The notes below the pieces were generated by a model. The model ran no database searches, had not been told where the DNA came from, and saw nothing but the letters and a program-made list of their open reading frames with translations. DNA of 64,000 bases from an uncultured virus (IMG/VR IMGVR_UViG_3300018878_000121) (Duplodnaviria > Heunggongvirae > Uroviricota > Caudoviricetes): positions 62,001 through 126,000 of IMG/VR virus record IMGVR_UViG_3300018878_000121; one strand, 5' to 3'. Every line of letters starts with the position of its first letter. Position 1 is the first letter of the stretch. Both the position numbers and the translations under genes were made by a program. This document shows, one piece after another, positions 2-43,114 of this stretch.

Positions 2-3000
2 GCTAATGCTACTGGTGAAAATGTTACAAAGATATCTGACCAATTAACTGCGGTTTGGAATAACTTTGATAATGGTACCAAGCCATTGGAATATTATGCT
101 GATGTTATGACTGCGTTAGGTGCGGCAACTGCTTCTAGTACTGATGAAATCGCTGAAGGTATTGAAAAGTTTGCTTCAATTTCTGAAATGATTGGTTTAA
201 GTTATGAGTATGCGGCTTCCGCGCTTACGACCGTAACAGATGTCACTCGTCAAAGTGCCGATGTAGTAGGTACTGCATTTAAAACGATTTTCGCACGTAT
301 TTAGGGTTTAAAACTTGGTGATACATTAGAAGATGGTACATCTTTAAATAAATACTCATAGGCTCTTGCTTCTGTTGGTATTTCTATTTTTGATTAGAAT
401 CAACAATTAAAAGATATGGATGATATCCTTGATGAGATGGGCGCTAAATGGTCATTACTTAGTAGAGACTAGCAAGCTGCGCTCGCGCAAACTGTTGCTG
501 GCGTAAGACAGTACAATCAGCTTGTATCTCTTATGAATAACTGGGATTTCTTTAAATAGAATGTAAATGTAGCAAAAGGTTCTGAAGGAACTTTAACTGA
601 ACAATCAGCTATTTATGAAGAAAGCTGGGAAGCATCTTTAAAGAGAGTTAGAGCTTCTGCTGAAGGTATTTATGATAGTTTAATTGATGAAGAATTTTTT
701 ATTAAGATTAATGATATTTTTGCTAAATTATTAGAAGGAATTAATGGAGCAATAGATGGTATTGGCGGATTTGAAGGAATTTTAAAAACTTTAGGTAGTG
801 TATTTATGTCTTATTTTGCTTCTAAAATGCCGAAAGCATTATCAGGCATAAGCAATACTTTTAGTATTATTACTGGAAAAGCTTTAAGAGATACTTAGAA
901 AATACAATAGGAAAGTATTAATAGTTTATCTAAAATGCGTCCTGATGCTACTAATGCTGAAAAAATTTAGCAAGAAGGATTGAAAAAAGTTGCTATTTTA
1001 AAGCGTGAATTAACTAATATTTCTAATAAATTAACTGAAGAAGAAAAAGAAGAAAATTAGAATAGAATATAGCAAACCGCAGATATTTATGCTAATGCTG
1101 CTGCCATTGAAAAAGAAGCGGCAGAATTAAGAAAACTTAATGAAGAAAAAATTAAAAGTTCTTCTAATCAAATTACAAACGAAGCTTTCGGATTTAGAGA
1201 AACTATTGCTGAAGATCAAAATCAAATAAATACATTAAGTTAGATATAGAATAGAACAAAATTAGATGATTCAAGATTAGATAAAGCTACTTCACGAGTT
1301 AATGAATTAACTGAGCAATTTTTTAAATTAAAAGATGCTATGGATGAAGTTATAGAATCTAAACAAATAGCTTTTGATAAAAAAGATTGGGAAGAATTTT
1401 CTAATATGGGAGAATTATTAGATTTTGATAGTAGAGAATCTAAAGAGTATTTCCAATATGTTGGAGAAGGAATTGATTAGTTAAAAGCAAAATATATTGA
1501 TTTTAGAAAACAAGAGTAGTAGTATGAATATTTAAAAAATAAAATAGATATTAATAAAGCAGCTTGGACTGCTCCTGATTTTAATTTATCTTTGGATGAA
1601 GCAAAAAATTCTATTTCACAATATTTAAGACAAATAGATGAATTAAAAAAATAGGGATTTGTTTAGTTAGATATAGATACAACAGAGTTGTAGTCAAAAT
1701 TGAAATCAACTGATGTAACTGTTGAGGATTTACAAAAATCATTTATTTCTTTTTTAAATAATTTATCAAATAAAGCTTCAAAAACTTCTACAAGTTTTTC
1801 AAAAGATGGCGATAAGATTCATAGTGCATTATTAAAAATTTTAACTCCTTTAATGGGTGATAAAAGTCAAGCTGAAAAAGCAATTGAAGGTCTGCGCACA
1901 AAATTAGCAGAATTAACAGAAGAAGAAATGGATTCTGTTTTACGCACAACTGGAATGTTATCGGAAAGAGTAGATGAACTTCCAAAACATGCTTATAAAG
2001 CCTCAGAAGCTATAATGGAACTTGGAAGTGCTTTAATGTCTTTAAATTCTTTTATGAATTCTGTTAGTAGTACTACTCAAATACTTGAAGATAATACTGC
2101 TTCTATGGCTGATAAAATAGGAGCTGTTGTTGGAGCAGCTTCTACTGGAATTTTTACTTTTAATTAGACTAAATAGGCAATGATTGCTGTTGTTGGAGCT
2201 GTAAGTAAATTTGCGGGAGCGGCAACTACAGCCGCCAAAAGTGGAGCTGCTTTATCGGGAATTTTAAGTAAAGGTTTAGCTGCTATTGGTGGCCCTACAA
2301 CTTTAATTATTGCAGGTATTACTGCAGCAATAATGGGGTTAGTTGGCTTTTTAGGTACTAAATCAGCTGAAGCTGAAAAAGAATTAGAAGAAATTGAAAG
2401 AAAAACAGAAGAGCTTAATAATAAAATTTCAGAACAGTATACAGAAATTGAAACTAATAATGAATTAATTGAGTCTTATGAAAAATTATTAAATACTTAT
2501 AAACTTACAGGTGAAGGAAAAGATTAGCTAGATATAAAAGCTAAAGAATTAGCTGAGGCTTTTAGAATTGAAGGATCGGCTTTAGCAACTTTAACTGGTT
2601 AGTATGCTGATTATGAAAATTTATTAAATAAAGCTAAAAATAAATCTTATAATAATGTTAATGAACAAATTAATTTAGTCCAAAATAAAAGAAATAGTAG
2701 TATAAAAGAATTTAATGATATTATTCAAGCTAAAAAGCATACTGATGATGTTGGGCATATAATGAGTAATCTTTCTTAGATTTCTTTATTTTCACTTAAT
2801 GATGTTAATCGTAATTATGGCACTAAAAATGAATCTTCAAACGGAGATATGGCTGCTTTTAGAATTATTGATGATTATTTAACAAAAAATAATTTAGGAG
2901 AAATTGGTAATAAAAATAGAAAAAATGGTACTATAATGACAGCTGAATTATTAGTTTCAGATATGGAAGAAGCTGTTAAGTTATTTGAATAGTTAGAAAA

Positions 3001-6000
3001 TGAATTATTACCACAAGTAAAAGCTGTTAGTAACGGTCAAGAGACTAAAGAATTTGAAGAAAAAATTAAAAGTGCTAGAGAAGTTTTGTCAAAATATGTG
3101 GCATCAGATTAGGAATTAAAAGGTTTAGAATTAGCTTATAGTTTTAAAGATAAAGATTTTGAATCATTTGAAGAATATAATAATTTAATAATTGAAACAG
3201 AAAATCGTTTAAAGAGCTGGGGATTTAGTACAAGTGAAATTGAATCTACAATTAATACTGCAATAAATTTAATTCCAGATTTAAAAATAAAACAATATGA
3301 AGAGTTAAGAGAAGTTGTAGAAACTTTATTATCTAATGGAGCTGGTAAAGGCATTACTGAAGGATTTTTAGGGCAATTATTTAGTGATGCTGAAAAAGGT
3401 GTTGGAATTTATGATAAATTAACTCTCGCTTCTTTAAATTGGTCAGTTTTAACAATTGATAATTGGGAGAAAGCTGCTAGTGCAGTTTAGAATTATACAA
3501 ATGCAATTAAAGATGCCACTAATGCTCAAGAATTAAGGGATAGTGCTAAAAATGCTTTATCTTTATTAGAAGATGGTTTAACTGAAAAAGAAGGCGAAGA
3601 GTTAAAAGGACTTATAGATTGGGGTAATGAAGAAAAAGGTATAGTTGAATATACTGAATTCTTAAAAATGAACCTTGAAGAGCAAAAGTCCTATTTGGAA
3701 GATTTTGCTAATATTAATTTATTTGAAAGATGGACCGATGAAATTCAAACTTCTAAAGATTTAATTGAATAGCAAAAATTACAGTTAGAAGATACAAAAA
3801 AAATATTAAAAAATGATTTATTATCTGTTTTAGATAGTGATGGTAGTTATCAGCAAGGTAATTACAGAAAAGTTTATGAATTATATGATTTAGATAAATG
3901 GTTTGAAAGTGAACAAGCTTTTGTTGATGCAATTTCTAACCCTAAAATGTTAGATAAATTGCTTAATAATCAAGATTTTCTTATTACTATTGGCATTGAT
4001 GAAGCTGAACTTATTCAAAATGCTGAAAATACTATTAATTCTGCTGAAGAATCTTTAGAATTAGAATTAAATACTACTCCATCTGAACATTCTATAAAAT
4101 ATTTATTAGATGAAATTGAATCTCTTGAAACAGAATTAACAGTTAAAGCAAATACTTTAGAAGCAGATGAAATCCTTGATGAATTATTAGATAGACAATA
4201 TCAATTAGATGTCCATGTTAATGCCGTTTTAGGTCAAGAACTTGATAAAAATTTAGAAAAGATAAAAAGTTTTAGTGATACTTTATCTCTAATTGGGGAA
4301 AATTATTAGGTTAGTGCAGATAATCTTCATGCTTTAGAAGCAGTAATTCCTGGAATTACTCAAAAATTAACTGTAAGTCAAGAAGGATTAATTTAGCTTC
4401 ATAAAACTGAGGCAATTGCGGCAATTGAAAATACTAAAGCAAATACAATTAGTTCAAAAACAAAAATTTAGAATCGTATTGATGAATTAAATGTAACAAA
4501 AACAGCTGCTGAAGCTGCTTAGAAAGCAATTCAAGCTGAAATAGATAAAAACTTAAAAGATGAAGAGACTCGTACTAATGCTGTTAATAAAATGGCTGAA
4601 ATTAGAGCCAATTATCAAAAAGCAACTAATGAAGGTGTAGCAGCAGATTATGCTAAAACATCAGCAGAAATGTCAGAAGATAGTGATGACAATATGGAAA
4701 ATGATGTTGAAAATGCTAGTATTTCCACAGCTGCTTATGTAGAAAAATTCATTGCTTTACATGCTAATACTGAAAACTATAAACAAGAATATTTAAAATT
4801 TGTTGAAACTATGCTTTTAGCTGATTAGGCTGCTTTAGCTGGAGATCCTGTAGCTTTAAGTGCTTTATTAGGTAATGTATAGGCTGTAAAAGATTTAGGT
4901 GGTACTGCAGAATAGATTGCTTAGGCAGAATTAGTAGCTAATGAAATGAAATTAACGGCTTCTGAAAAAGGGCAAGTTATCTAGTATAATGCTGCTATTG
5001 TTTAGAATAAAATCAATGATGAAGGCAAATTTGATTTTTCTGGTACGAGAAATGATGAAACTGGAAAAACAATAAAAGAATCTGAAGAAACGAAGAGAAA
5101 AACAGAAGATTATTTAAATAATTTAGCAAAAGAATATGCAAAATTAAATGAAGATACTGCTAACGAATTTTTACAAAATCACTATGATTATTATGGTTCA
5201 ATTATAACTTCTAGTGATGAAGCAATTGCTAAATTAAATATTGATTTAGCTGAAGAAACGGCAGCTCTTAATTCTTTAGATTAGATGATAGTAAATATAA
5301 AAAATGGAAAAAGTGCTACCGGAACCTCTTCACAATCTTCTGAAACTTTACAAGAAACAGTTAAAGAACATAACCCTTATCAAAATGTTGATAATACTAT
5401 TGAAGCTATTAATCTAAAATTAGAAGAATAGAAAGCTATAACTGAAAATTTAGAAAAAGGCACTGAAGAACATTTAGCATCTTTAGAAAATGAGCGCTTA
5501 TTAACAGCAGAAATTGGTAAATATCAACAAGAGAAACTTAATATTGCTGAAAATGAATTAGCTACTTTAGAATAGAAATTATCTCAATTTGGAGCAGAAT
5601 ATGACCCATTAACTAGAAAAATTGTTAATTATGATGAAATAGTTAATGCTAAAGCAAGAGAAGTTGATAAATTAAATAAAGAACTTGCGGCCGCTTCTGG
5701 TCCTGAAAAAGAAAGATTATAGGAGCAAGTAAATGCTGCTGAAAAGCTTTATAATAATGTTAAAGAGTTAGCTGATGAACATAGCAATACTGTTGATATT
5801 ATTAATGATACTACTACTGCTTTAAGAGAAAATGGTTAGGCTATTGAAGATAATATAAAAACACAGGAAGAGTTTAATAAAGAATTACAAAAAGCAAGAA
5901 AAGAAGTAGAAAAAACAAATAAAGAAATTCAAGAAACCATTGATAATCTTAAAGATGAAGTAGATATTTACCATCAATTAAATCATGAATTAGATAAGTA

Positions 6001-9000
6001 GAATGAAGAATTAGATAGATTAAGTAAATTAAAAGATTCTTTATATGGTGAAAATCATATAAAAGCAGCTAAATAGGAATTAGAAGTTGTAAAACAAACA
6101 TAGAAAACATATGAAGATTTACTTGATACTACATTAGATGACCTTGAAAATGCTATGGGTAAAGCTACTGTACATTTTGATACTAAAATTGTATATGATG
6201 AAGATGGAGCAATTTTAAATTATCAAGAGTTACAGGAAGAATTAGTTCGTAAAGCTGAAACAGCTGCTAATGATTTAACAGCTGCTAACATTCATTCTTT
6301 AACACTGCCTGAAGAATAGCGCGAGGAATATTTAAAACCATATCAAGATGCTTATGATAATGCTTTAGCTGCTTAGAAAGATGGATAGGATGCTATTAAT
6401 AAAGTTCATGATTTAAGAGATTAGGCTTATAATTATGGACAGCAAGCAAGAGATAGTTTCTATAAAGGTTTAGACCTTTAGGCTGAATTATGGGATTATA
6501 AATTTAATCTTTAGATTGAAATCAATGATAATGATTTGGAAGAATTAGAAAAGCAATTAGAAAAGATTGAAGATAAAGGCTATGAAATGTCTGAAGCAAT
6601 AGCTTTAATTAATACAGATTTTAGAAGTCTTTATGAAAATAATTATACATATTTACAAAGTGAAATTGATAATTTATAGAGTATGTATAGTGCTGGAGAA
6701 ATTACAGAAGAAGCATATATAGAAAGATTAAAGAAAATCCAAGAAGAAGCCAAAGAAGCAGCGAATGAACTTGAAGAACTTGATGAAAAAGTATATGAAT
6801 ATTATGGCATTACATTAGAGAAAGCTAATGAAGAATTAGAATTCTATATCAAGTAGATGGAACATGCAACTGAGGTATTAGACCACTATAAAAATATTAT
6901 TGAATTGGTTAATGGTGAATACGATTATGAGCGTTTAGGTATCGTTCTTGAGGGTTAGGCACATAATCTATAGAATGAAATGGAAGTTGCTGTTAAATGG
7001 TTTGAGACCTTAGATGCGGAAAAAGCTGCAATTGAAGCTGAGTTAGCTAATCCTGGCATATCTGATGAATAGCGTGAAAAATTAAAAGAAGCTTATGAAC
7101 CTATTTATGAAGCTTGGATGGAAGCACATGATGAAATGTTATCTAAAACTACTGAATGGGTTGAAGCAACTAAAGCAGTTATGGAAAATACTATGGCAAA
7201 AGCTGCTAGAGATTTAGAGATGTCTTTCACAGATGGCGTAGGTTTTGATGCCTTAAACGATTCTATGGATAGATTAAATGAATATTCTGATATTTATTTA
7301 ACTAAAACTAATCAAATTTATGAAGTTCAGAAAATGATGCGTACTGCTCAACAAGCCGCAGATAAAACCGACAATGCTTCATCTAAACAGAGATTGAAAG
7401 CATTTATGGACGAACTGGGAGATTTACAAGAGAAAAATAAATTAAGTAATCTTGAATTAGAAATTGCGCAAAAGAAATATGATTTACTTGAAGCACAAAT
7501 TGCTCTTGAAGAAGCTCAAAATGCTAAATCTACAGTTAGATTACAAAGAGATTCTGAAGGTAATTTTGGTTATGTATATACTGCTAATTAGGAACAAGTT
7601 GCTGAAGCTGAAACGCAAGTATATGAAGCAGAGCAAGAGTTATATAATTTAGCATTAGAATCTGCCAATGATTACGCATAGAAGCGTATTGAATTGCAGC
7701 AATCATTATATGACGATTTAGTTGAGTTAGAAGAAAATCGTGTTGCTGGTATGTATGCAACTGAAGAAGAATATAATAAAGCTCGTGAATAGCTGATTAA
7801 AGAATATAATGATTTATTTATTGCTTATGAGGATTAGTATAATTTAGCAATTGAAGCTGATGGTTATTTAAGAGTTTAGATTGCTGAAAGACATAATAAA
7901 CAACAATTATCTGATACTGTTGGATTTTTAGATGAATCCACATAGAATATTCTTGAAACAACTACATTACAGCAAGAAACATGGATTACTCATTTTGATA
8001 ATATTTTAGAAAAAACTCGTGGATGGCGTAATGATACCAATAGTGAATATGATTAGTCTGCTATTGATGCTTCTGAATGGTTAACAGCAACGCAAGGATA
8101 TTTGAAAACTTGTGAAGATTCTTATAAAACTTGGTAGACTACAGTTACTGAACAAAATAAATATGTTTAGGAAGCTTTAGTTCATACTCAGGGAGAAACT
8201 GATAAATTAACTACTGAAAGTGATGAATTAAAAACAGCTTTAATTGGTGAAGATGGAAATGGTGGTCTTGTAAAAGCTCTTGGAGATGAATTATAGAAAG
8301 TTAGAGAGTTAATTACAGAATATGCTTTACAAAGTAATGGATTAGATATTTTAGCTGAAAAATATGAATCTTTAAGAGGTCAAATTGATAGTTTAATTTC
8401 ATCAATTAATAGTATTCCTGATTGCGCTGAATGGTGTGTAAAAACATATGGAGATGGCGGAATGGGAGGAGGAGATACTGGAGGTAATTTCCCAGTTGAT
8501 CCTGACCCAGTTTTTTCATCTGATGATGATGATAGTAAATTTGGTTGTGGTGCTCATACTGCTACAACAGCAGATGATATTAAAGATACATCAATAACAT
8601 CAAATACTAATAAAAATTATGCTGTAGAATCTGCTAAATATTGGAAAGGTCAACAAAGTATTGGAGAAGCTGCTGCTAATTTAGGAATTTCTGTTAGTGA
8701 AATGAATAAAATAAATATGGCTTTAGCGGGTTAGACTGAAAATTGGAATGGTACTAAAATTTTCACTGAAGAATTTGCTGATTAGAATTTATCTGATGAT
8801 TATGAAAGAACTCAAAAAAGTGGATTTGATGAAATTATTAATAATCAACAATCTGCTGCTAATGTAAATAAATGGCTTATAGATGAAGGTATAGCAACTG
8901 GTGCCACAGGCATGTATACTGGGGCTTGGGGTCCAGAAGGTAGATTAGCGTTATTGCATGAAAAAGAATTAGTATTAAATAAAGAAGATACTAAAAATTT

Positions 9001-9235
9001 CTTACATGCAACCGATATTTTAAGAAGTATATCTGATGTAATAGATTTACAAGCTATGTCAAATCAATTTAATACTTTATCTGCTAGTATCTATTCTGGT
9101 TCTTCTGGAATATTAGAACAATCAGTTCATATAGAAGCTAATTTCCCGAATGTATCTGATAGGAATGAAATTGAAGAAGCGTTTAATAATCTTATTAATA
9201 CAGCTTCTCAATATGCGAATCGTAAAACTATATAA
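2..9235 (+). CDS. Tail tape measure protein (5'-truncated by the window, >3000 aa; TAG read as Gln)
   Basis: ORF fragments at 86, 1700, 2180, 3947, 4592, 7118, 8462 and 8912 share one frame; all but the last end in TAG, and the last ends in TAA at 9235. TMP-like N-terminal region (DVMTALGAATASSTDEIA...VGTAFKTIFARI), a hydrophobic Ala/Gly stretch near 2050-2360, long coiled coils, and a C-terminal ATGMYTG..GRLALLHEKELVLN motif. Not every codon between fragments was checked. Confidence 0.9.
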
Positions 9236-31042: not shown

Positions 31043-32947
31043 ATGATTACAAAAGTAACGGAACAAAATTCTGTAAAATATCAAAAATTATTCAGAGAAG
31101 CTGAAGAATTATTAAAAAGTACTGGTACTGAAGATATTGTAGTTGGAGAAACAATTGACGATTTATATGAATATTTTATTGCTTTTCCTTCAATCTTAAA
31201 TGCGGCCGCTATTAAAGATGCTTCTGATGATAATAAAACTGGTGATCCTGAATATTACCAAAAGTATTTTACTATATTACCTTTAGATGAACCAGTATTT
31301 GAAATTAATGCTGATACTCGTGCGATTACAATTCCACAGCAATTTAAAAGTATTGGTGTAACTGGTGATAATATTGCGGAAATTGTTTTCTTTTCTATTG
31401 ATAGATTCTTTGATGCTGTTGATTTTGGTGCTCCTGAAATTGAAGCTGTAATTGAATGGCATCGTACTACCGGAGATAATCAAGATACTTATGTTGATAA
31501 AGCTTATATAAAAGAATTAACATTAAAAGAAAATAAAGTTTTAATTGGATGGGTTATTGATGAACGCATTACTGAAGAGCCTGGTACAATTGAATTTGCT
31601 GTAAGATTGGTTATGAAAGACGAAAAAAATGAAATTATTTATAGTTTTAGTACATCAGCAGCAAAAGTAAATATTAATAAAACACTTAATTTTTATCCAG
31701 ATGCTACTGAAATTGATAATACGGCGATTGCGCAAGTTAAAGCTCGTATTTTAGCAACTAATTCGCCTGATGTATCAAATGAAAATTCTTTAAATGCTCC
31801 AGCATATAATATTATAGAAGACGATGGTGATGAAATATCTACAAATATTGATTCTATGGTTGATGATGAAGGAAAACCATTAACATATTCTTATACTTCT
31901 ACTAATGATTTTTATGCCGATTTTAATGATGAAGATAATGCTTTAGTAGTAAATGTTAAAGCTAGAAGTACTAATGGTAATGGAGATGAACGTCTTCTTT
32001 ATCGTTGGTTTAAATGGAATGAAAATGATAAAAACTGGCAAGCTTATCCTATTGGAGCTGTTGAAGCAGTTGATGGAAATCAAACTATTATTGATTCTAT
32101 TGGTAAATTTAAATGTGTAGCAATAGATAATGTTGGTATTCGTAGAGCGACAAAAGATAGCCAAATTCTTCATATTCTTGGTCCATAGAAACCAGAAGTT
32201 AAAACTGCTGATGAAGGAGTTTATACTTCTATAATTTTAACCAATGAAGCAGATGGTATGGAATTAAATGTAAAACCAGGTCATGAAAATGATGTATTTT
32301 ATGTTGATAATTATGATATTAATAATAAAACAAAATTATCTTATGAATGGAAAAAGAGCAATAATCTTAATGATACTATTAAGATTGATATTGAAGATGC
32401 TTATGAACAAAAATATCAAGCAAAAGAAGAGGGCTATTATTATGGTTATGCTATAACTTAGCGTAATTTAAAAATTGAAACATCTGATGAAGCTAGTATA
32501 TATCGTGTAACTAAGCCTTTAATTCAACCTACTTTATAGTATACTGTATTAGGATTATAGAATGGTACTAATGGTAAAATTGGAGAAACTATTGAAATTG
32601 ATTTTAGCACTTATGATGATGAAGGCAATGTATTAACAACTTATGCTTATGATACAATTGATTATTAGTGGTATCGTTCTATGAATCAAAATCAAGGTGA
32701 TAGTAGTTATCAAAAAGTTGAAGATGAAGACTATAATCAAGGACATCTTACAGCTACTGATAGAAAAATTTTATTTACACCAAAAACTCCAGCAGCTTAT
32801 AGAATTAAATTATTGGTTAAACGTAATGGATAGAGTATTCCTGAAAAAGATTTTGATGAAAATGATTCATCCACTTGGCCAATGTTAAATCAATTATAGA
32901 CCAATGGAACTTATGATGAATTAACTATTTCAATGAGCATAGATTAA
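31043..32947 (+). CDS. BppU-like baseplate/receptor-binding protein (634 aa, TAG=Gln)
   Basis: FEINADTRAITIP..IGVTGDNIAEIVFFSIDRFFD...W.I...T..PGTIEFAVR pattern; Ig-like Y.W repeats downstream; reads through TAG to TAA 32945. Confidence 0.7.
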
Positions 32948-32969
32948 TCAATAAAGGAGGTTATAAGAT

Positions 32970-33584
32970 ATGATAACCAATCCGGTTGATTATTACAATA
33001 AAATATTATAGATAAAAGATTTAAATAAACCTCAATATGCGCTTTTGCTTCCAACAGATGAAACAATTTATGATATTGATTTATCTACAAGAGAAGTTAA
33101 AGCACCTAAATTTTTAAGTTTACACAAAGATCATTATGCGGAAACCATTTATTTTAAAGTTGATAGATTTTTTGATAATATGGATTTAGCAGATACAGTT
33201 TGTACTATTTAGTATGTAAATGATGGTGTAAAAAAACTTACAGGTGAAGCTGATGCGGGTCGCATTTATTTAGTACCATTTTTTGATATTTTTACATATC
33301 GTGATGACAATAAAATGCTTATTCCTTGGCAAATTAGTGGTTTAGTAGCTAGAGCTCCTGGTAATATAACCTTTTCATTTAGATTTTATAAATTAAATGA
33401 AACAGGAGATTTTATTTATTGTTTAAATACTTCTCCTGCTACAAGTAAAATTCTTAATGGATTAGATTTAAAACTTCCAGAAAATGATGAAGGTTATATG
33501 GAAGCAGGAATTGTAGATGATATTTATCATTAGATAGATATTGTGAGTAAAGCTACTGATTTATATTGGATTGAAGTTGAATAA
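32970..33584 (+). CDS. BppU-like protein, paralog of the preceding N-terminal domain (204 aa, TAG=Gln)
   Basis: AGGAGG RBS; YDIDLSTREVKAP..DHYAETIYFKVDRFFD...WQISG..A.APGNITFSFRF aligns by eye with the 31043 protein. Confidence 0.7.
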
Positions 33585-33588
33585 AAAT

Positions 33589-33617
33589 TTGACATAAATA
33601 AAAATTTATGTTATAAT
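33589..33617 (+). promoter_or_regulatory. Consensus sigma70/sigmaA promoter with extended -10 and an inverted repeat over the spacer
   Basis: TTGACA (33589-33594), 17 bp, TG-n-TATAAT (33609-33617); ACATAAAT-AAAA-ATTTATGT inverted repeat at 33592-33611. Confidence 0.85.
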
Positions 33618-33651
33618 AATATAAAAGAAAAGAAAGGTTAGGTATTTAATT

Positions 33652-33957
33652 ATGGCAACTACTTTAACAATTAATTATTCTGTAAATGGAGTAGAAAAGA
33701 ATCTTATATTAACTGAAATTACTAGATGTTCTGAAGATTTTAAATCTGAATATGTTTCTTTAAATATTTCTTGTAATGATATTGTTGAAAATAGTATTTT
33801 AGGTGAATTAATGAATTCTATAATTTCTGATATCATTTTTATAGAAGACTCTGAAACTACCACTTTTACTAATTATACTCGTCTTTATAATATTAATCGT
33901 TCTTATAAAGGTGAAGGTTCTTCTTTAACTTTTAATTTAAGAGAATATTTTAATTAA
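33652..33957 (+). CDS. Hypothetical protein (101 aa), first gene after the 33589 promoter
   Basis: ATG..TAA ORF with purine-rich RBS; no recognisable motif. Confidence 0.75.
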   Translation: MATTLTINYSVNGVEKNLILTEITRCSEDFKSEYVSLNISCNDIVENSILGELMNSIISDIIFIEDSETTTFTNYTRLYNINRSYKGEGSSLTFNLREYFN

Positions 33958-33993
33958 TTTATTAAATTAAAATGAATAAAGGAGGAATAATTT

Positions 33994-35163
33994 ATGGCAG
34001 CTGATGATAAAATATTAGCAACGTAGATTAGTACAAATTCTTCTTCCTGGTATCAAAGATTAAGAGCTATTTAGGCAAATAATAAAACAGGTATAGGCGG
34101 GTCTGCTTTATAGCAGACCGCCGACCCTGGTATCACTTCAGGAACGAAGATGACAGCAACACATATTAATAATTTTATTAATGCTTTAACAGCTTTAAAA
34201 TCAAATGTATTTTTAGCTTATGCGGATTGGACTAATTATACTCCTTCTACTGTTTCTAGTGGTGGAAAAGCTAATGCTTCTACTACATAGACTAAAATTA
34301 ATAATATGTTAACATCACTAGAAAGTATATGTAGTAATTGTTAGACATATAGTACAAATAGTTATTCTAATACTTGTTCAAATAATGCTACAACTAGTTA
34401 TTCAACCTATTCGGAAAGTATTGATAAATATAATTATTCTAATACATGTAAAACTACTTATAATTCCACAGAATCTACAAACTCTACTTGGAGTGAAAGC
34501 TGTAAAACAACTTCTAATAGTACTAATAGCTATTGTTCTGATGCTAATTGTAGCGCTTATAGCGAGAATGAAACTTGTGCAGAATTTTATGTTGGTAATA
34601 GCACTTATTCTACAGATAGCACTAGCTCAAATTCTACTTATGGAGTTGGAGATTCTACTTAGGCAACAGATGCTACTTCTGTTTGTGCTACTTTATCAAC
34701 TTATAATGATGAAATATCTTATAGTACAGATTGTAGTGATGGTTGTTGGGATTGTACTTTTCATTCTTATTGTCCTGCAGCTGAAGTAGCTACTTATAGC
34801 GTCGGAGAGTGTTCAACTAATGCTACTAATTCTGAAAATTCAACAGAAGGAGTTTGTAGCACTTGTAGTACTAATTCTACTGATTTTTATTGTAATGAAA
34901 ACTCTTGTACTGAACATACAAATAGAGGTACATATTCAAATCATTCACAATGTAGTACTTGTGGAAAAAACAGTACATATAATGATACTTGTCAAACTTG
35001 TGAGACTGATTCAACCACATCAAATACAACTTATACTTAGTCAAATTCTACATATACTAACACTAATGATGGTTATAGTACATATTCAAAAAAAGCTACA
35101 TATGGAACATATACTAATACAAGTGGTAATTCAACATATTAGACTTATACGGTAAAAAATTAA
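33994..35163 (+). CDS. Ser/Thr/Asn/Tyr/Cys-rich protein (389 aa, 22 Cys, 8 TAG=Gln); putative radical-SAM substrate
   Basis: AAGGAGG RBS; hand translation from MAADDKILATQ to YTVKN-TAA. About 110-aa Cys-free N-terminal region, then a low-complexity region with CxxC pairs and NST/NSTY repeats. Absent from the ORF track because of TAG codons. Confidence 0.85.
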
Positions 35164-35193
35164 TTGAAATGAGATAAAGGAGAAAATATTTTA

Positions 35194-36552
35194 ATGTTAC
35201 AAGATAGAGAAACAATTATTTTATATACTACAGCAGTATGTAATTTAAATTGTACTTATTGTTTTATTGATAAAAATCCAAGTTTAAAAAAGATAGATCA
35301 ATGGCTTGATGATAGTTTTTTAAAAACTCCAGATTATTATTTTGAATATGCAAAAAAAGCCGTTTTACAAGAAAAACTAAAAGAAGTATAGATTTGGGGT
35401 GGAGAACCTTTTTTGGGTATGCATAGAGCCTATGCAACAATAGATAAATTTATTAATTATTTTCCAAATTTAAAAAATTTTATGACTTCTACAAATTTTG
35501 TATCTCATTGTTTTTTTGAAGAATTTTATGGACTTCTTGATATTTTTAGAAAGCATCCAAATAGAAATTTTACATATAGTTTATAGTTATCATTAGATGG
35601 TGTAAAGGAAATAAATGATATTAATAGAGGTAATGGAGTTACTGATCGTTTTATTATTAATTTTGAAAAATTTGTTAAAGAATTACAAACTTTATTACCA
35701 AACAATTTAACATTAAAAATGCATTTAAAGCCCACTATTGATACAAATTCTTTGAAAAAATTATAGACTAAAGAACAAGTTTTTGAACAATTTATCTTTT
35801 TTGAAAGCTTCAATGAAGTATATTTGAAATATAATAAAAAAAATAATTTACTATTTTCACTTCCAATTCCTAATACAGCTTGCCCATCTCCTCATACTCA
35901 AGAAGATGGAATAATGTTTGCAAATTATTGTAAAATAACAAGAGAGCTTGAAAAAGAAAATAAAAATAATAAAATTTTTAAATTTTATAATAATATTACA
36001 AGCTTTACTCCAAGAAGAAAAATTCAATATGACAAACTTTCATTATCAGGATATTGTCAAGGTCATTGTGGTAATGGAAAAAGAGCTATTGGTCTTTTAC
36101 CTAACAATATGGTTTCTTGTTGTCATAATGGTTTTGTTGATTTGCTAGCTGAATATAAAAAGAATGTATTAACAAATAGTGAACATATGGATAATGTTAC
36201 TATTGAAAAAAGTTTATTTAAAAATAAACGTAATACTTTAATTTTCCCTTATGATAGTAAAGAATTTGAAATGTATCAAAAACAATTAGAAGTTTTTTAT
36301 CAAAATGATGATACTGCCAAAATTTCTAATTGTGCTTCTTTAATTAAATTATTGGCTGATTTTGAACAAATTGATAAAAAATATCAAGATAAAAAAGAAG
36401 CTGTTAAAGGTGCTTATTTTATTTTTAATACTACATCATATTGTGTTAGAGATAATTTAGGTGTGACTGGAAGCATCTATATGTATCCTGTTGGTTTAAT
36501 TAAATTATTGCTAAATGGAGCTAGAGAATATATTGAGGAAGGATGTAATTAA
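35194..36552 (+). CDS. Radical SAM protein 1 (452 aa, TAG=Gln), partial SPASM/Twitch-like C-terminus
   Basis: CNLNCTYC (CX3CX2C), IWGGEPF, QLSLDG; C-terminal CQGHC...LLPNNMVSCCH; fragments 35194 and 35824 in frame. Confidence 0.9.
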
Positions 36553-37941
36553 ATGGCAAAGTGTTTAAATTTTTAGGAAGAAAAAGATGTTATTTTATGG
36601 TCATTAATTAATGATACATTTGGAAGACTTTTTTCTAAAGAAAAAAAAGAAGATATTGAACATGATATGGGGTTAGAAATTTATATAACCCCTGAATGTA
36701 ATTAGAATTGTTCTTATTGTTATTTATGTAAAAATGGTGATGAACTTTATCCTAAAGAATTAAGAAATCCTACAATAATTTTAAATAATTTAAAAATTAT
36801 GTTAGATTATTGTATTGATAATAATTGGAATCCTGGAAGATTTGATTTTTTTTCTGGAGAAATTTGGGATACTGATTTAGGTTATAATGTTTTAAGCATT
36901 ACAGAAGAAGCAATAGAAAGAGGTTTTCACCCTAGACTAATTGTAATTCCATCAAATTTTAGTTTTATTTTAAATGAAGAAGCTAAAAATAGAGTTGAAA
37001 AATTTATGGAAAAATGTAGACAATTTAATATAAAGCCATGTTGGTCTTGTTCTAATGATGGTTTATTGTTAGATTTAGAGACAAGACCATTTAATTCAGA
37101 TGAATTAAATGCAAAAAAAGATACTGAAGATTATTATAAAAAATTATTTGAATTTTGTAAAAAATGGAATTTAGGTTTTCATCCAATGGTGGCAGCACAC
37201 GGAATTGAAAAATGGTCAGAAAATTTTTTATGGTGGATGTCAGAATTAAAGAAATATAAATTTGAAAGAAATTCTTCAATAATGTTTTTAGAAGTTAGAA
37301 ACGATGATTGGACAGATGATAAAATTTATCATTATTTAAAATATTTAAATACTAGTATTAATTATTTAAATGATGAATGTATTAATTTAAATACATTGTC
37401 TTTTGAAGATTATGTTAGAAAAACTAATAAAAATATTAAATACAATTATACACCTGTTATTTTAGAAAAATCAAGTTTATAGCCTGGATGCACTATTCAT
37501 AGATCTTTAGTTATTCGTTTAGGTGATTTAGCAATAGTTCCTTGTCATAGAACTTCTTATGAAGAATTTATTATAGGACATTTTAAAGTAGAGAATAATA
37601 AAATTATAGGAGTTACAGCTAAAAATATTCAAATAATGAATTAGGTATGGCTAAATAATATGAGTGGTAATGCTAAATGCACTAATTGTCCTTATAGCAA
37701 TTACTGTATGAAAGGATGTTATGGTTCTTAGTTTGAATCTACTGGAGAATTATTATATCCAATAGAATCAGTATGCAATTTATATAAAGCAAGAGCAATA
37801 TTTATTTTTTATAAATATTTAAAAATGGGTATTTATAGAGAAGATAATCCCGAGGATAAAAAATATTTTGATTTTATTCAATCAATTAAAGATACGAAGG
37901 AGTTTAAAAAATGGTACAAAATTGTTTAGGAATTGATTTAA
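36553..37941 (+). CDS. Radical SAM/SPASM protein 2 (462 aa, TAG=Gln)
   Basis: C-N-(TAG=Q)-N-C-S-Y-C motif, FSGE, SNDG; SPASM-type GC...GDLAIVPCH...CTNCPYSNYCMKGCYGS...VC; TAA at 37939. Confidence 0.9.
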
Positions 37942-38510
37942 TTAATATTTATGAAAATCTTATCATAAATGGATTAAATGTAGAATTAGCAAAAGATATT
38001 GAAAAATATTTGATTTATTTTTTAGACAATAACACTAATGAAAATTAGTTATTATTATATAATTTATTAAATATTTTAAAACGTCAATAGAATACATCAA
38101 TTCTTCTAAATTTTTTAATTCAAGAAGTTGAATTAAAGTTATTAAGATTAAGTTTTTCTAATAATGATATAAAAAATAATAAAGATTGTTATAATATTTC
38201 ATCTTGTCAAAAAAATGAATCTAAAGAAGAATTAAAGAAAATTTTAAAAGTAACTAATAAAGATTTATTCCCTCCAAAAGGGACTACAACTCGTATTATT
38301 AATAAAAGAAAAGAAGAAAATGAAGAACATGAATATGTTTTAGAGATAGATGATCAAGGTAATGTTTTAGAAATTTTAGAACATTATATAACAAAAAATG
38401 ATGCAGATTCTATTGATATATTAAATGATTCTCCTTTAAGCAAACTTAAAGAAAAATATCTTAAAGAAGATAAAGAAAATAATTCTTTAACAGAAAATGA
38501 TTTAGAATAA
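37911..38510 (+). CDS. Hypothetical protein (199 aa, TAG=Gln)
   Basis: AAGGAG RBS, ATG 37911 overlapping the end of rSAM2, two in-frame TAG, TAA at 38508. Confidence 0.7.
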
Positions 38511-39612
38511 TATTAATAATTTAAATATTTCTAAAATGGGATTAGGAATTATGCGTCATAATTCTAATCAACAATATACAAAACAACTAATAGAATATGC
38601 TTTAAATAATAAAATTAATTATTTTGAAGCTTGTGATTTCTATTTACAAAACGCTTGTGAAATACGTCTTGGGGATGCTTTAAAATAGCATCCTCGGACT
38701 TCATATAAATTATGTGATAAACTTCCATTATCTACAATTCCTTATTTTATTCAAAAAAATAAAAATTGGAATTTAAATGATTATTTTAATAATCAATTAG
38801 CAAAATGTAGAACTGATTATTTTGATGTTTATTTGATTTAGGCTTTAGATGAACGTAATTTTAATTACTTGGAAAAATATCAAATTATTGATTTCTTTTT
38901 AAAACAAAAAGAACAAGGAAAAATTAAATTATTGGGTTTTTCTTTTCATGGAAAAGTTGATATTTTAAAAAAATTATTAGAAATGAAATGTTGGGATATC
39001 GTTTAGTTTCAATTAAATTATTATGATTGGATTTTAGGTGAGGCGAAAGAATTATATTTTTTAACAAAAGAATATGATTTACCTATTATTACAATGGGAC
39101 CAACTAAAGGCGGATTATTAATAAATAATTTACCTAAAAAATCATTAGATAGATTAAAAGAAAACAATATTAATCCAGTCTATTTATGTTATTCTTTTTT
39201 AGAAACTTTAGACAACGTTAAAATTATTTTATCAGGAGCAGAAACTTATGAAATGATTAAAGATAATTTAAATTATTTTGAAAATGAATCTCATAAATTA
39301 ACTCCAGAAGAGTGGTAGCATATTAAACAAAATATTCAAGATTATCAAGAATAGAGTTTAATTCAATGTACGGGATGTCGTTATTGTGTTCAAAGATGTC
39401 CTGCTAATTTACCAATAGATAAAATTTTTAAAGAATATAATAATTTTATTCAATCTAAAGATTTATAGTCAAGAGAATTTTTATATTAGAATATTCATAG
39501 TTCTAACTCTACACAGAATTGTAAAAATTGTGGTCAATGTGTAAAAATTTGTCCGCAACATTTAAATATTCCAGAAATTTTTCATAAACAAATTTTCCCA
39601 GTAAGGAGATGA
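38497..39612 (+). CDS. Aldo/keto reductase-like protein with C-terminal 2x[4Fe-4S] domain (~371 aa, TAG=Gln)
   Basis: SKMGLGIMR, INYFE, DKLP, GKIKLLGFSFHG, QFQLNYYD, MGPTKGG; C-terminal CTGCRYCVQRCP and CKNCGQCVKICP. Start inferred from overlap with the upstream gene. Confidence 0.85.
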
Positions 39613-39616
39613 AAAA

Positions 39617-40027
39617 ATGGTAGTATCTGAATTAGTAGCTACAATTTTTCAAGTTTGTATAATTCCATTATTGGGTGTATTAACTACTTTTTTTGTAAAA
39701 TGGGTTAATTCCAAAAGCGCAGAAATCTCAAATAAAATTGATGATGAAACATTAAATAAATATTTAAATATGCTTACTGAAACAATTAATACTTGCGTTT
39801 TAGCAACCAATTAGACATATGTTGAAAGTTTAAAACAACAAGGAAAGTTTGATGCGGAAGCGCAGAAAGAAGCATTTAATTTAACTTGTTCAGCAGTAAT
39901 GGATATTTTAAGTGAGGACGCAAAAGAATATTTAACTTCTGCTATTGGAGATTTACAAATTTATATTACAAAGAAAATTGAAGCTGAAGTACATACAAAT
40001 AAAGTTACACCTTGTGTAAATCAATAA
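39617..40027 (+). CDS. Probable holin (LL-H-like, one N-terminal TM; 136 aa, TAG=Gln)
   Basis: Hydrophobic IFQVCIIPLLGVLTTFFVKWV; ATNQTYVESLKQQGKFD...IEAEV pattern; reads through TAG at 39812. Confidence 0.65.
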
Positions 40028-40036
40028 AATAAATAT

Positions 40037-40070
40037 AGGGGAACCTTTAGTATAATCTAAAGGTTCCCCT
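40037..40070. terminator. Probable bidirectional terminator between convergent genes
   Basis: AGGGGAACCTTTAG-TATAAT-CTAAAGGTTCCCCT, flanked by A- and T-rich tracts. Confidence 0.85.
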
Positions 40071-40084
40071 TATTTTTGTTTATA

Positions 40085-40789
40085 TTAAATTCTATTATAA
40101 GTAAGCCAACGTTCACGAATTAAATCATGAGATTTTTTGGGAAAATATAATACTTCATCATTTTCAAAAGTTAAATGGTCAGTATCAATAATCTTAATTT
40201 CACTTAAATTAATCAATAAACTTGGTGCTAAAAATAAAAATTGCGGATGTTGGTTCAATGGAGTTATTGCTTTTTCAAAAGATGAGCGCAATGACTAACC
40301 ATCAAACATTGTTCCATTTTTTAAATGATAACATAAACAACGTTTTACAATGTTAATATAATTAACTTGACTTGAGCGTATTCTTCTTTCACCTTCCGCA
40401 GTTTTAATTACCAAACTATCTTCTCTTATCTCTTTTTTAATTATATTAAATAATTCAAACAATTCTTCTTTTTCTATTGGTTTTAAAAAATAATGATCTG
40501 CATGCACTTTATAAGCAGGATAAGCGAGAGAAGGATCTTCTCCAATAAAAATAAAATAACTATTTGGGTCTATTTTATCCATGCGATGACTTAACTCATA
40601 TAGATTTTCTGATGAATCAGTGTCCATAATATAAACATCAAAACTTGCAGGAACAACAAGTAAATCTTCTGATTTATCAAAAATTGATACTTTTGCCACA
40701 GACTTAGATTCTATTAAATATTCTTGAATCATCTCACGCAATTCATTTAAATATGTTTTGTTGTCATCATAAATAGCAATAGAGAGCAT
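40085..40789 (-). CDS. LytTR-family response regulator (REC + LytTR, 234 aa, one TAG=Gln)
   Basis: IAIYDD..YIMD..YFLKP receiver domain; INYINIVKRCLCYHL and FLFLAPSLLINLSEI LytTR-like region; two fragments joined at TAG 40295-40297. Confidence 0.85.
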
Positions 40790-41874: not shown

Positions 41875-42669
41875 ATGTTTAATTCTAATGGTTACAGTTT
41901 GGCAGATATCGTTGCCGCAACAGGTGGCGGTAGAGAGAATTGCGGCGGCTTCGGCGGCTGGGGCGGAGATGGATGGTGGATTATCCTCTTATTCTTGCTC
42001 TGGGGTAACAACGGCTGGGGCGGCAATCAAGGTGGACGTGGAACAGTTCGTGAAGAAATTGCTTATGGTTTTGATATGAACGGTTTAGAAAATAGCGTCC
42101 GTGGTGTTCAGCAAGGTATTTGTGATGGTTTCTATGCCATGAATACTGGTATGTTAAATGGATTTAGTAACATTCAAAATACTCTATGTCAAGGTTTCTC
42201 TGGTATCAATCAAGGTACAGCTCAGTAGACATTTGATTTATCTACTCAGTTACATGGTATGGCAGCTGATAATGCGGCTTGTTGCTGCGAAACTCAGCGC
42301 GCTATTGAAAGAGGATTTGCTGAAACCAACTATAACATGGCAACTCAAGCTTGCGATACTCGTAGAGCAATTGCTGATAGCACTCGTGATATTATTGACA
42401 GTAATAACGCAGGTGTTCGTTCTATTTTAGATTTCTTAACTCAGGATAAGATTGCTACTCTTACCGCAGAAAATCAGAGTCTAAAATTCGCAGCTTCTCA
42501 GGCAGCTCAGAACGCTTTCATTGCAGCTAATCAGGAAGCTCAAACCGCAGAACTTATTCGCAGACTTGATACCCCATGTCCTATTCCCGCTTATGTAGTT
42601 CCTAATCCTAATTGTTGCTATCCATCTTATGGATATGGGTATGGCAACACTGGATGCTGCGGTGGTTAA
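41875..42669 (+). CDS. Gly/Cys-rich membrane-anchored protein of unknown function (264 aa, one TAG=Gln)
   Basis: GWGGDGWWIILLFLLW TM segment, ACCCETQR, coiled coil, PIPAYVVPNPNCC...GCCGG tail; two fragments in frame. Confidence 0.85.
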
Positions 42670-42694
42670 TTAACAAAGGAGGTAAAAAATCTGT

Positions 42695-43114
42695 ATGGAA
42701 ATTATTGCTAATGCTTTATAGACAGTTCCAGCAAATCAGACTGTTTATTTCACAGATACCGCCGTATGCGGTGGCCCATCTATGACTCATAGAGCTGGTA
42801 GTGGTTTAATTACTCTTAGAGGAATTACTAATCAATGTAGAGCAAGATTCCGCATCACTTTTGGAGCAAATATTGCTGTTCCAACAGGAGAAACAGTTGG
42901 ACCAATTTCATTGGCTATTGCGATAGAGGGTGAACCTCTTCAAGCTACTATAATGATTGAAACACCAGCGGCTGTTGAAGAGTTCTCAAATGTTTCAAGA
43001 ACTACCTTTATTGATGTTCCTCGTGGATGTTGTGTAAGTGTAAGTGTAAGAAATGTAAGTGATATTCCAGTAAATGTACAAAACGCAAACTTAATTGTTG
43101 AACGTGTTGCTTAA
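42695..43114 (+). CDS. All-beta protein, possibly BclA C-terminal/C1q-like (139 aa, TAG=Gln)
   Basis: AAGGAGG RBS, ATG 42695; alternating beta-strand pattern (GLITLRG..FRITFGANI..ISLAIAI..NANLIVERVA). The fold assignment is an inference. Confidence 0.7.

Follow-up and report, generated by a model that had tools for sequence, protein, structure and literature searches.

The 64,000-nucleotide window analysed here (positions 62,001 to 126,000 of IMG/VR record IMGVR_UViG_3300018878_000121, an uncultured virus of the Caudoviricetes) contains on its plus strand a gene for a 389-residue protein rich in Ser, Thr, Asn, Tyr and Cys, hereafter the target, followed by genes for two radical S-adenosylmethionine (rSAM) enzymes. 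We consider it fairly probable that the target gene, at 33994-35163, encodes a protein-sized rSAM substrate resembling the precursors of RiPPs (ribosomally synthesized, post-translationally modified peptides), made from a late operon beside tail-fibre and lysis genes. The features on which this reading is built are the following (pLDDT, predicted local distance difference test).

33994..35163, plus strand: target gene, 389 aa; eight in-frame TAG codons read as Gln; ribosome-binding site aaaggagga
33994..34338, plus strand: helical N-terminal domain (N-domain), residues 1-115; AlphaFold model and near-invariant W19, N71, A77 and N115 (54 sequences)
34339..35124, plus strand: hypervariable S/T/N/Y/C-rich body, residues 116-377; motif counts and pLDDT <50
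35125..35160, plus strand: C-terminal tail ...Y-x-[YF]-x-V-[VTK]; V387 near-invariant in 54 sequences
35194..36552, plus strand: rSAM1, radical SAM enzyme, 452 aa, three TAG; Pfam PF04055, 34 bits (cut-off 29.5)
36553..37941, plus strand: rSAM2, radical SAM/SPASM enzyme, 462 aa, six TAG; TIGR04085, 31.4 bits (cut-off 27)

Under translation table 11 the target region holds only short open reading frames (ORFs), whereas reading TAG as a residue opens long ORFs across the whole plus-strand block from the tape-measure gene to the holin. Since these long late-block ORFs exist only under that reading, and since database homologues carry Gln at the aligned TAG sites (A-T-Q-I-S, R-x-I-Q), TAG = Gln is the correct reading here. 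The gene starts at an ATG at 33994, with aaaggagga upstream, and its stop codon is 35161-35163; the homologues share the additional N-terminus, which supports this start rather than one near 34150 or 34321. The segment 34321-35160, on which an earlier note on this DNA had focused, is in frame with the gene, makes up its final 280 residues and contains four of its eight TAG codons. Over the 126-kb record (G000:C1 1-126353), TAG-rich ORFs lie mainly in a plus-strand block at ~44.5-101.6 kb that consists of the structural genes and the rSAM cassette; two minus-strand ORFs at 9.6-11.6 kb carry seven in-frame TAG apiece, and the other ORFs of ≥200 aa mostly 0 or 1. The 17 tRNA genes at the start of the record do not include a CTA-anticodon suppressor; because the record is 71% complete, a TAG suppressor tRNA may lie in the missing part. 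The tape-measure gene (window 2-9235) is open at the window start and has 3306 codons in the full record, 78 of them in-frame TAG, a very long tail for a phage of ~180 kb estimated size. Within the N-domain coding sequence, a perfect 8-bp inverted repeat at 34100-34119 (ggtctgct ttat agcagacc), encoding G-S-A-L-Q-Q-T in a 30% GC genome, may be a chance occurrence or a regulatory or pausing hairpin. The sequence occurs in animal feces metagenomes, an anaerobic setting that fits the oxygen sensitivity of rSAM enzymes. There were no RNA runs among the sequencing runs listed for the stretch, and contigs of four sequencing runs gave fragmentary, noisy cover of this AT-rich DNA and no usable picture of strain variation.

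To place the target in a family, 1.84 billion representatives were searched by phmmer with a shorter form of the protein (17 proteins), and a word-indexed search was made (6 proteins). With a profile of 19 sequences the family comprises 62 clusters at E≤1e-3, whose proteins carry neither names nor Pfam domains; the target itself has no match in Pfam, NCBIfam or PHROGs. No match was obtained by tblastn against 50,697 phage records, either with the target or with family member P0039. Two scans of metagenome contigs, and one of genome contigs with the N-domain, found no relative, and a degenerate DNA pattern for INNMLTSLE found nothing in viral contigs; in both cases TAG-encoded Gln may hide relatives from back-translated patterns.

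All family members follow one plan: a conserved N-domain of ~100-115 residues ending in L-x-S-L-E-x-I-C-x-N, a hypervariable body of 104 to 325 residues that cannot be aligned family-wide, and a short conserved C-terminal end whose tails do align across the family. In the AlphaFold model (54 sequences), the N-domain contains three helices (19-29, 55-70 and 95-110) and has pLDDT of 73-96 across blocks 1-110, and residues 152-384 fall below 50. A β-solenoid or metal-binding role for the body, which the earlier note had offered as its alternative, thus finds no support in the predicted structure. A fold search with the N-domain model gave no significant match (best BFVD match, E 0.14), and its best VIA score (Z 6.8) paired it with helical proteins that are unrelated and stayed under the tool's noise level for such folds. 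In the ESM Atlas, the clusters nearest to residues 1-125 of family member P0001 are unnamed viral ones; the nearest cluster bearing a Pfam domain is PF27846 (rSAM target, Cxxx repeat) at 0.83, which we take as a lead only.

Close relatives preserve the body much better than the family as a whole. Across 40 distinct 213-aa relatives (subfamily P0033-P0067, P0078-P0091), identity falls from 93% in the N-domain to 82% in the body and rises again to 91.5% in the tail. Most of the Cys columns persist, and in seven of them at least 37 of the 40 sequences have Cys. At column 126 the residue is Cys in 18 and Asn in 19, and at column 199 it is Cys in 27, Phe in 8 and Asn in 4. Because Cys and Asn alternate at single body positions, C-S-T and N-S-T look like interchangeable forms of one unit. 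The Cys-to-Asn swap takes two nucleotide changes. The earlier note had proposed an alignment of homologs, in which a lack of conserved Cys/Tyr spacing was to count against modification. Spacing is indeed conserved at short range, within the 213-aa subfamily, and is not conserved at long range, where the bodies of the family are unalignable.

The body of the target is built from few kinds of residue and a small set of short motifs. The earlier note had described ~280 residues dominated by S, T, N, Y and C, and these five amount to 195 of 280 residues (69.6%; T58, S55, N33, Y27, C22). The five CxxC pairs that it listed (CSNC, CWDC, CSTC twice and CQTC) are present, as are exactly 10 NST tripeptides, five of them NSTY, and its many Y-S/T-x motifs correspond to 16 Y[ST] vs 10.9 expected (p=0.03). 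When the same 280 residues were shuffled 5000 times with their composition preserved, the observed counts of NST (10 vs 1.34 expected), NSTY (5 vs 0.13) and [ST]Y (21 vs 10.9) were reached in 0/5000 shuffles, and [ST]Y[ST] occurred 13 times vs 4.4 expected (p=0.0004); therefore chance is far from accounting for the NST/NSTY units and for the residue that precedes Tyr. For CxxC the excess in this body is modest (5 vs 1.63 expected, p=0.016). The DNA is not a simple tandem repeat, as had been noted: TRF finds just two tiny arrays (30 and 19 nt, scores 39 and 31), and blastn finds no second copy of the body in the whole 126-kb record, the best non-self match being 61 nt at 72%.

We asked which of these motifs belong to the family rather than to one protein. 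The 54-row alignment yielded 39 non-redundant bodies with 7163 residues in all, and in these six motifs occur at frequencies that 0/500 shuffles reach: C-x-T (196 vs 71 expected), C-x-T-N (63 vs 9), C-x-x-N (87 vs 48), NST[YFW] (84 vs 3.2), [ST][YFW] (409 vs 271) and C-x-x-C (44 vs 22). The reverse order N-x-x-C is not enriched (56 vs 47 expected). An earlier count with a regex domain boundary, based on 23 non-redundant bodies after the loss of 18 of 70 sequences, gave the same picture, with NST at 110 vs 16 expected (present in 18/23 bodies) and NSTY at 47 vs 1.6 (14/23). Selection on the peptide pattern, suspected in the earlier note from a single sequence, is thus supported across the family. 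The note's choice of units fared less well. CxxC is absent from 27/58 bodies and is not a family feature; NST is missing from 6/58; and aromatic-x-[N/D/S/T], counted as the three-residue cyclophane motif, is not enriched (385 vs 435 expected). The conserved grammar consists of C-x-T-(N) and N-S-T-aromatic units, not of CxxC pairs or a fixed Cys/Tyr spacing. Cys makes up 1.0-10.6% of the body in family members (median 5.5% over 58 rows) and 0-2.2% in two proteins of a further phage lineage (L011, below). Aromatic residues make up 4.7-16.4% of the body, with Tyr and Phe trading places between subfamilies. N-S-T-aromatic is the more universal unit, and known motifs do not explain it.

Gene order links the target to the enzymes. 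An S/T/N/Y-rich protein lies directly upstream of the same two divergent rSAM enzymes in 5/5 independent phage or prophage lineages: the window; a 121-kb viral contig (L002); a 51-kb viral contig that also reads TAG as Gln (L007); L011, identical in DNA to L010 and counted once with it; and L012, a contig of a Clostridia metagenome-assembled genome. L010/L011 was found starting from rSAM2, and L012 starting from rSAM1 in a genome search. In the window the order is gene A (a 101-aa ORF), target, rSAM1, rSAM2, gene E (a 199-aa ORF), an aldo/keto reductase (AKR)-ferredoxin fusion and a holin. All three viral loci with a family member (window, L002 and L007) have rSAM1, rSAM2 and gene E directly downstream of it. 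L002 has gene A, the family member, rSAM1 (59% identity), rSAM2 (50%) and gene E in a neighbourhood that is otherwise rearranged around the cassette, and L007 has the family member, rSAM1, rSAM2, gene E and the AKR-ferredoxin fusion.

The two remaining lineages are more distant. In L012, fibre-like genes are followed in order by a 116-aa ORF, a 253-aa N/S/Y-rich family member (hhalign 86%, E 4.7e-6 to the family N-domain), rSAM1, rSAM2 (hhalign 100%, E 1.5e-65), a 113-aa ORF, a holin-like ORF and a GH25-SLH endolysin. In L011 the order is LamG fibre proteins, a 401-aa LamG protein, a 174-aa S/T/N/Y/D-rich protein, rSAM1 (hhalign 99.6%), rSAM2 (31% identity) and a 166-aa ORF. The 401-aa LamG (concanavalin-like) protein carries a D/S/T/N/Y-rich C-terminal tail that ends in FDGVV and resembles the family's; its gene (L011:2968-4173) immediately precedes those of the free S/T/N/Y/D-rich protein and the rSAM pair. 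At L011:8319-9473, ~600 nt downstream of the cassette, lies a gene for a GT1-family glycosyltransferase. The cassette adjoins tail-fibre genes in 4/5 lineages (window, L007, L011 and L012).

An indirect sign of linkage comes from contig sizes. For 10/62 family clusters the longest contig has exactly the length of that of an rSAM1 cluster among the 120 listed (for example 55482, 32772, 24032 and 23959 bases); because 120 of 341 rSAM1 clusters are listed, this is a lower bound. The earlier note had called the protein a putative substrate of its two neighbouring rSAMs, and by synteny, shared contig sizes and grammar it looks so. A single-protein search for rSAM1 relatives in viral contigs returned none, and the two phage-database matches of rSAM1 (L005 and L006) were dropped, L005 being a SCIFF-type maturase on bacterial-looking DNA.

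Both enzymes belong to the radical SAM superfamily. In rSAM1 the cluster motif C16-x3-C20-x2-C23 is invariant in three lineages, as are C246, C292, C310 and C417, and PF04055 scores above its gathering threshold; rSAM1 contains no CX2CX5CX3C. rSAM2 is a radical SAM/SPASM protein by its CxxxCxxC motif (C49, C53, C56), its canonical seven-Cys SPASM set (C313, C331, C376-x2-C379-x5-C385-x3-C389, C408), both invariant in three lineages, and its TIGR04085 match; PF04055 did not match the window rSAM2 at E≤0.01. The nearest named families of both enzymes are RiPP maturases (PapB, SCIFF, DynA, YhhB and TIGR04463), all far below cut-off, the best matches scoring 30-38 bits vs cut-offs of 340-525; the two enzymes are thus in the superfamily but in no characterised family. 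PDB profile searches with rSAM1 and rSAM2 gave no match at E≤0.01. For the rSAM1 family alone, at least 341 clusters reach E≤1e-5, the contigs that carry them extending to 278 kb, and the 120 listed all have E<1e-147. The enzyme pair forms a separate, large family.

The rest of the block is made up as follows.

33589..33617, plus strand: promoter-like site, TTGACA-17-TATAAT with TG; the sole 12/12 consensus match in 32900-40200
33652..33957, plus strand: gene A, 101-aa ORF; homologous to the ORF upstream of the L002 family member (BLASTP E 6e-9)
37911..38510, plus strand: gene E, 199-aa ORF; sequence homologues at the same place in L002 and L007
38497..39612, plus strand: aldo/keto reductase fused to a 2x[4Fe-4S] ferredoxin domain, 371 aa, eight TAG; Pfam Aldo_ket_red E 7.5e-25 and Fer4_9 E 9.7e-11
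39617..40027, plus strand: holin; phrog_13712 holin, E 1.1e-31
40037..40070, no strand assigned: bidirectional terminator-like hairpin, 14-bp stem with seven GC pairs, closing the block begun at 33589

The promoter-like site, 35 nt upstream of gene A, and the terminator-like hairpin bracket the block from gene A to the holin; both are consensus matches only. Every gene of the block except gene A carries in-frame TAG (two in gene E, one in the holin gene), and the TAG codons that the target, both rSAM genes and the AKR fusion share with the structural genes suggest that they are expressed together. Gene A has no Pfam, PHROG or NCBIfam match; no homologue of it is detectable at the corresponding position in L007, and the 116-aa ORF of L012 does not align with it. 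The ORFs at the place of gene E in L011 and L012 are not detectably related to it. Its model has an N-terminal four-helix domain (pLDDT 71-88). The AKR-ferredoxin fusion occupies the same place in L007 and is absent in L002, L011 and L012. Pfam shows no protease or exporter in 33652-40027, and none was seen on reading the ORFs around the cassette in L002, L007, L011 and L012, where the scan took in some of the flanking ORFs.

Further downstream, a 234-aa protein encoded on the minus strand at 40085-40789 has a weak receiver match below cut-off (PF00072, E 2e-4) and a match to phrog_8810 (E 2.4e-20), and is conserved beside the cassette region in L002 (2130-2840, minus strand). Two conserved late proteins accompany the cassette neighbourhood in both phages (41875-43114 and L002:3814-5001): a Gly/Trp/Cys-rich protein of 250-264 aa with a hydrophobic stretch (phrog_16490, E 7e-57) and a protein of 139-141 aa (phrog_20016, E 5e-58).

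The simplest explanation of why two rSAM enzymes of the peptide type accompany a long, unstructured polypeptide with such motifs throughout is that it is their substrate. We therefore propose the following scheme, in which we infer the modification itself, the bonds, the enzyme responsible for each and the location of the product from gene order and motif content. Late in infection, the target, both rSAM enzymes, a small accessory protein, an NAD(P)H-type reductase-ferredoxin and the holin would be produced together from one block. The substrate would be a long, fast-evolving body built from C-x-T-(N) and N-S-T-aromatic units, held between the folded N-domain and a C-terminal strand. The N-domain, perhaps together with gene E, would hand the unstructured body to both enzymes in the anaerobic cytoplasm of the host, and their clusters would receive electrons from the AKR-ferredoxin fusion. 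The SPASM enzyme rSAM2 would abstract a hydrogen atom and join the Cys sulfur to a carbon of a nearby residue, giving a thioether of the ranthionine type with Thr at +2 or Asn at +3; the placement of Cys before its candidate acceptor in C-x-T-N fits thioether formation by such an enzyme. More tentatively, rSAM1 may act at the N-S-T-aromatic units, through a C-C or C-O link to the ring or another side-chain change. The product would be a multiply stapled, protease-resistant, hypervariable polypeptide. It would retain its N-domain, as the block holds no protease or exporter, and the conserved C-terminal end, together with that absence, argues that the whole protein is the product. Its most likely destination would be a fibre or whisker of the virion, the leading guess because fibre genes adjoin the cassette in 4/5 lineages and because a LamG fusion occurs in L011; otherwise it would be freed at lysis. 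A bolder form of this proposal is rather doubtful: that the product is a virion fibre or whisker that decides host binding and is welded into shape by the two rSAM enzymes ahead of assembly, one of them catalysing an undescribed reaction at the aromatic residue of the N-S-T-aromatic units, so that gut phages would contain an enzymatically carbon-cross-linked virion protein and, in it, a large and fast-evolving natural display library of stapled peptides.

Several observations weigh against the substrate proposal or parts of it. The case for modification rests on synteny and motifs, and both enzymes score below the cut-offs of all characterised maturase families, so that the chemistry proposed is tentative. 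No RiPP recognition element (RRE; PqqD-like) was found by Pfam or NCBIfam in rSAM1, rSAM2, gene A or gene E; rSAM1 is without an N-terminal extension and rSAM2 has ~40 residues ahead of its cluster motif, and a fold search with the gene E model gave no match at E≤0.001 (best PDB match, E 0.08). Neither gene A nor gene E is conserved in all lineages, gene A being recognisable in 2/5, gene E in 3/5 and the AKR fusion in 2/5. The wide range of Cys content, down to 1.0% in the family and to 0-2.2% in the two L011 proteins, means that thioethers cannot be the sole or universal modification, and [YFW]-x-[NDST] is in fact depleted in the 39 bodies. With respect to a place in the virion, there is no PHROG or Pfam homology to fibre domains, and the N-domain matches a segment of an S74-chaperone fibre protein in another phage, L004, weakly (hhalign 29-31%, E about 5e-4).

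An unmodified structural protein would also be at home at this position. The body could be a low-complexity disordered whisker or a β-solenoid fibre held by Asn/Ser/Thr ladders, disulfides or metal, with the rSAM enzymes acting elsewhere: the gene stands at the end of the tail/tail-fibre module, a hypervariable body between conserved ends resembles receptor-binding proteins, and the LamG-domain protein of L011 bears the same type of tail. We nevertheless regard this as unlikely. The rSAM pair stays with such a protein in 5/5 lineages, even amid the differing neighbourhood of L002; AlphaFold shows no solenoid, with body pLDDT <50; CxxC is absent from nearly half of the bodies (27/58); and there is no signal peptide and the cytoplasm would be reducing, as read from the sequence and the anaerobic habitat.

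The layout of a conserved N-domain followed by a hypervariable body would fit a RiPP precursor, and it raises the question of whether the N-domain is a leader that is cleaved off, leaving the body to yield small modified peptides, bacteriocin-like or for signalling, that are freed at lysis. In addition to leader and iterated, hypervariable core, the nearest enzyme families are RiPP maturases, and long folded leaders occur in Nif11/NHLP-type precursors. A leader protease or exporter, the other component of such systems, is absent from the window block by Pfam and from the four other loci on ORF reading; the last dozen residues are conserved, implying that the whole chain matters; and the bodies of 104-325 residues show no visible recurring cleavage motif. 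A classical precursor therefore seems improbable to us.

Still less probable is a glycoprotein, in which NST would represent N-x-S/T sequons and the Ser/Thr-rich body a glycosylation scaffold. NST is the most enriched tripeptide in the 23-body count and L011 has its GT1-family glycosyltransferase gene, but the cassettes of the window, L002, L007 and L012 neither contain nor adjoin a glycosyltransferase gene, NST is absent from 6/58 bodies, and the aromatic residue after NST is conserved (84 vs 3.2 expected), which a sequon does not need. Finally, the reading of the body as the variable target of a diversity-generating retroelement (DGR) or similar mutator, which would explain the N/S/T/Y/C/D/G codon set, was rejected as very improbable: the body is hypervariable, Cys and Asn swap within a subfamily and the codons (for the most part with A, T or G as first base, A, C or G as second and T as third) are one step from AAT, but the 126-kb record, 71% complete, holds neither a reverse transcriptase (RVT_1) nor a template-like second copy of the body (best blastn match 61 nt at 72%), and known DGR variable regions are far shorter than the variable part here (300-1000 nt).

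Radical-SAM cross-linking is known mainly from small secreted peptides. Here, a large gut-phage late-operon family (at least 341 rSAM1 clusters) couples a distinct set of two enzymes to a fast-evolving protein with a grammar of its own. If the substrate proposal is true, phages would apply natural-product chemistry to their own proteins. The N-S-T-aromatic unit may then reveal a new radical reaction, and the body, hypervariable but flanked by conserved ends, would offer a natural scaffold on which stapled peptides diversify and might help to determine host range.

Among known systems, the cyclophane, darobactin and dynobactin-type maturases act iteratively on aromatic residues in repeated short motifs. 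The best named matches of rSAM1 are to this group, DynA (NF041298, E 1.2e-9, 37.7 of 450) and YhhB (NF041707, E 2.9e-7, 29.7 of 445), but they are confined to the rSAM core (residues 7-178), and the XyeB score (TIGR04496) is 16.2 of 450, so that rSAM1 falls outside the triceptide/cyclophane families. Cyclophane substrates have repeated aromatic-x-X3 motifs; the family's count of 385 vs 435 expected covers N, D, S and T as X3 ([YFW]-x-[NDST]). The ranthipeptide and sactipeptide maturases (PapB, SCIFF/CteB, QhpD) resemble rSAM2 in combining an rSAM core with a seven-Cys SPASM domain, and one of them, QhpD, acts on a protein subunit. rSAM2 has its best named matches here, PapB (NF047865, E 2.5e-9, 36.8 of 340) and SCIFF (TIGR03974, E 4.3e-8, 32.5 of 425), both confined to the SPASM part (residues 242-415) and both far below membership; rSAM1 scores 25.9 of 340 against PapB.

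The CXXX-repeat system TIGR04115 is similar in architecture, a non-repetitive N-terminal part and a repetitive Cys-bearing C-terminal part beside a SPASM maturase. The comparison can succeed in principle because a true member lies in L007, where a maturase scoring 399 bits (cut-off 350) is encoded between a tail-fibre gene and the cassette; the window rSAM1 scores 24.4 of 350 and the L002 rSAM2 15.6 of 350. The body of the CXXX-repeat protein has a strict CXXX period; that of the target has no period and consists largely of N, S, T and aromatic residues. The N-domains of the target's family and of the L007 repeat protein are unrelated (hhalign 0.2%). At L007:3371-6256, this 250-aa Cys-x-x-x repeat protein and its maturase follow a tail-fibre gene with a Gly-rich domain, so that two different rSAM substrate systems stand side by side in one phage; the repeat protein has no match in the Pfam set searched, which seemingly lacks PF27846. 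At 5998-9024 of L004, a standard-code phage, two PapB-like rSAM/SPASM genes (114 and 87 bits) lie downstream of a 971-aa fibre gene and are followed by a 228-aa protein with a run of CxCxxx repeats and a Peptidase_S74 intramolecular chaperone domain, a mark of trimeric fibres. L004 and L007 thus share a theme with the window, peptide-type rSAM enzymes beside repeat-bearing proteins in or near the tail-fibre module.

The closest parallel at the level of the substrate is CrpA/CrpC of Methanococcus voltae, the first tested archaeal case of rSAM cross-linking of a full-size protein (Dieter et al., 2026; PMC13692751). As described there, CrpA (28.8 kDa) is modified as a whole protein, as is proposed for the target; its N-terminus resembles a leader and its C-terminal region is repetitive. 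Its gene neighbours that of a SPASM rSAM enzyme, CrpC, which installs thioethers, and AlphaFold models its repeat region with low confidence, as it does the body of the target. Each Cys of CrpA precedes its acceptor (C-X-X-Q/D), the same order as in C-x-T-N. The two systems also differ: the CrpA system (PMC13692751) is archaeal and cellular and the present one viral; CrpA is served by one enzyme with a predicted RRE, whereas two enzymes with no recognisable RRE are found here; CrpA has at least 10% Cys and regular 17-residue repeats, in contrast to a median of 5.5% Cys and no regular period; and the target has aromatic residues in N-S-T-aromatic units and a 115-residue N-domain. Against the CrpC family (TIGR04463), rSAM1 scores 31 of 525. 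The text of PMC13692751, as distinct from its supplementary homologue dataset, mentions no phage, and it names QHNDH as an older rSAM-modified whole protein. Marine phage rSAM genes are listed without named substrates in passages of two further reports (PMC12801897, PMC5332604), and a full-text search of the published literature returned no phage S/T/N/Y-rich or tail-fibre protein modified by radical-SAM enzymes. The substrate family, its grammar and the enzyme pair were not found in the literature searched; the kind to which the target would belong, the whole protein modified by rSAM enzymes, is a known one.

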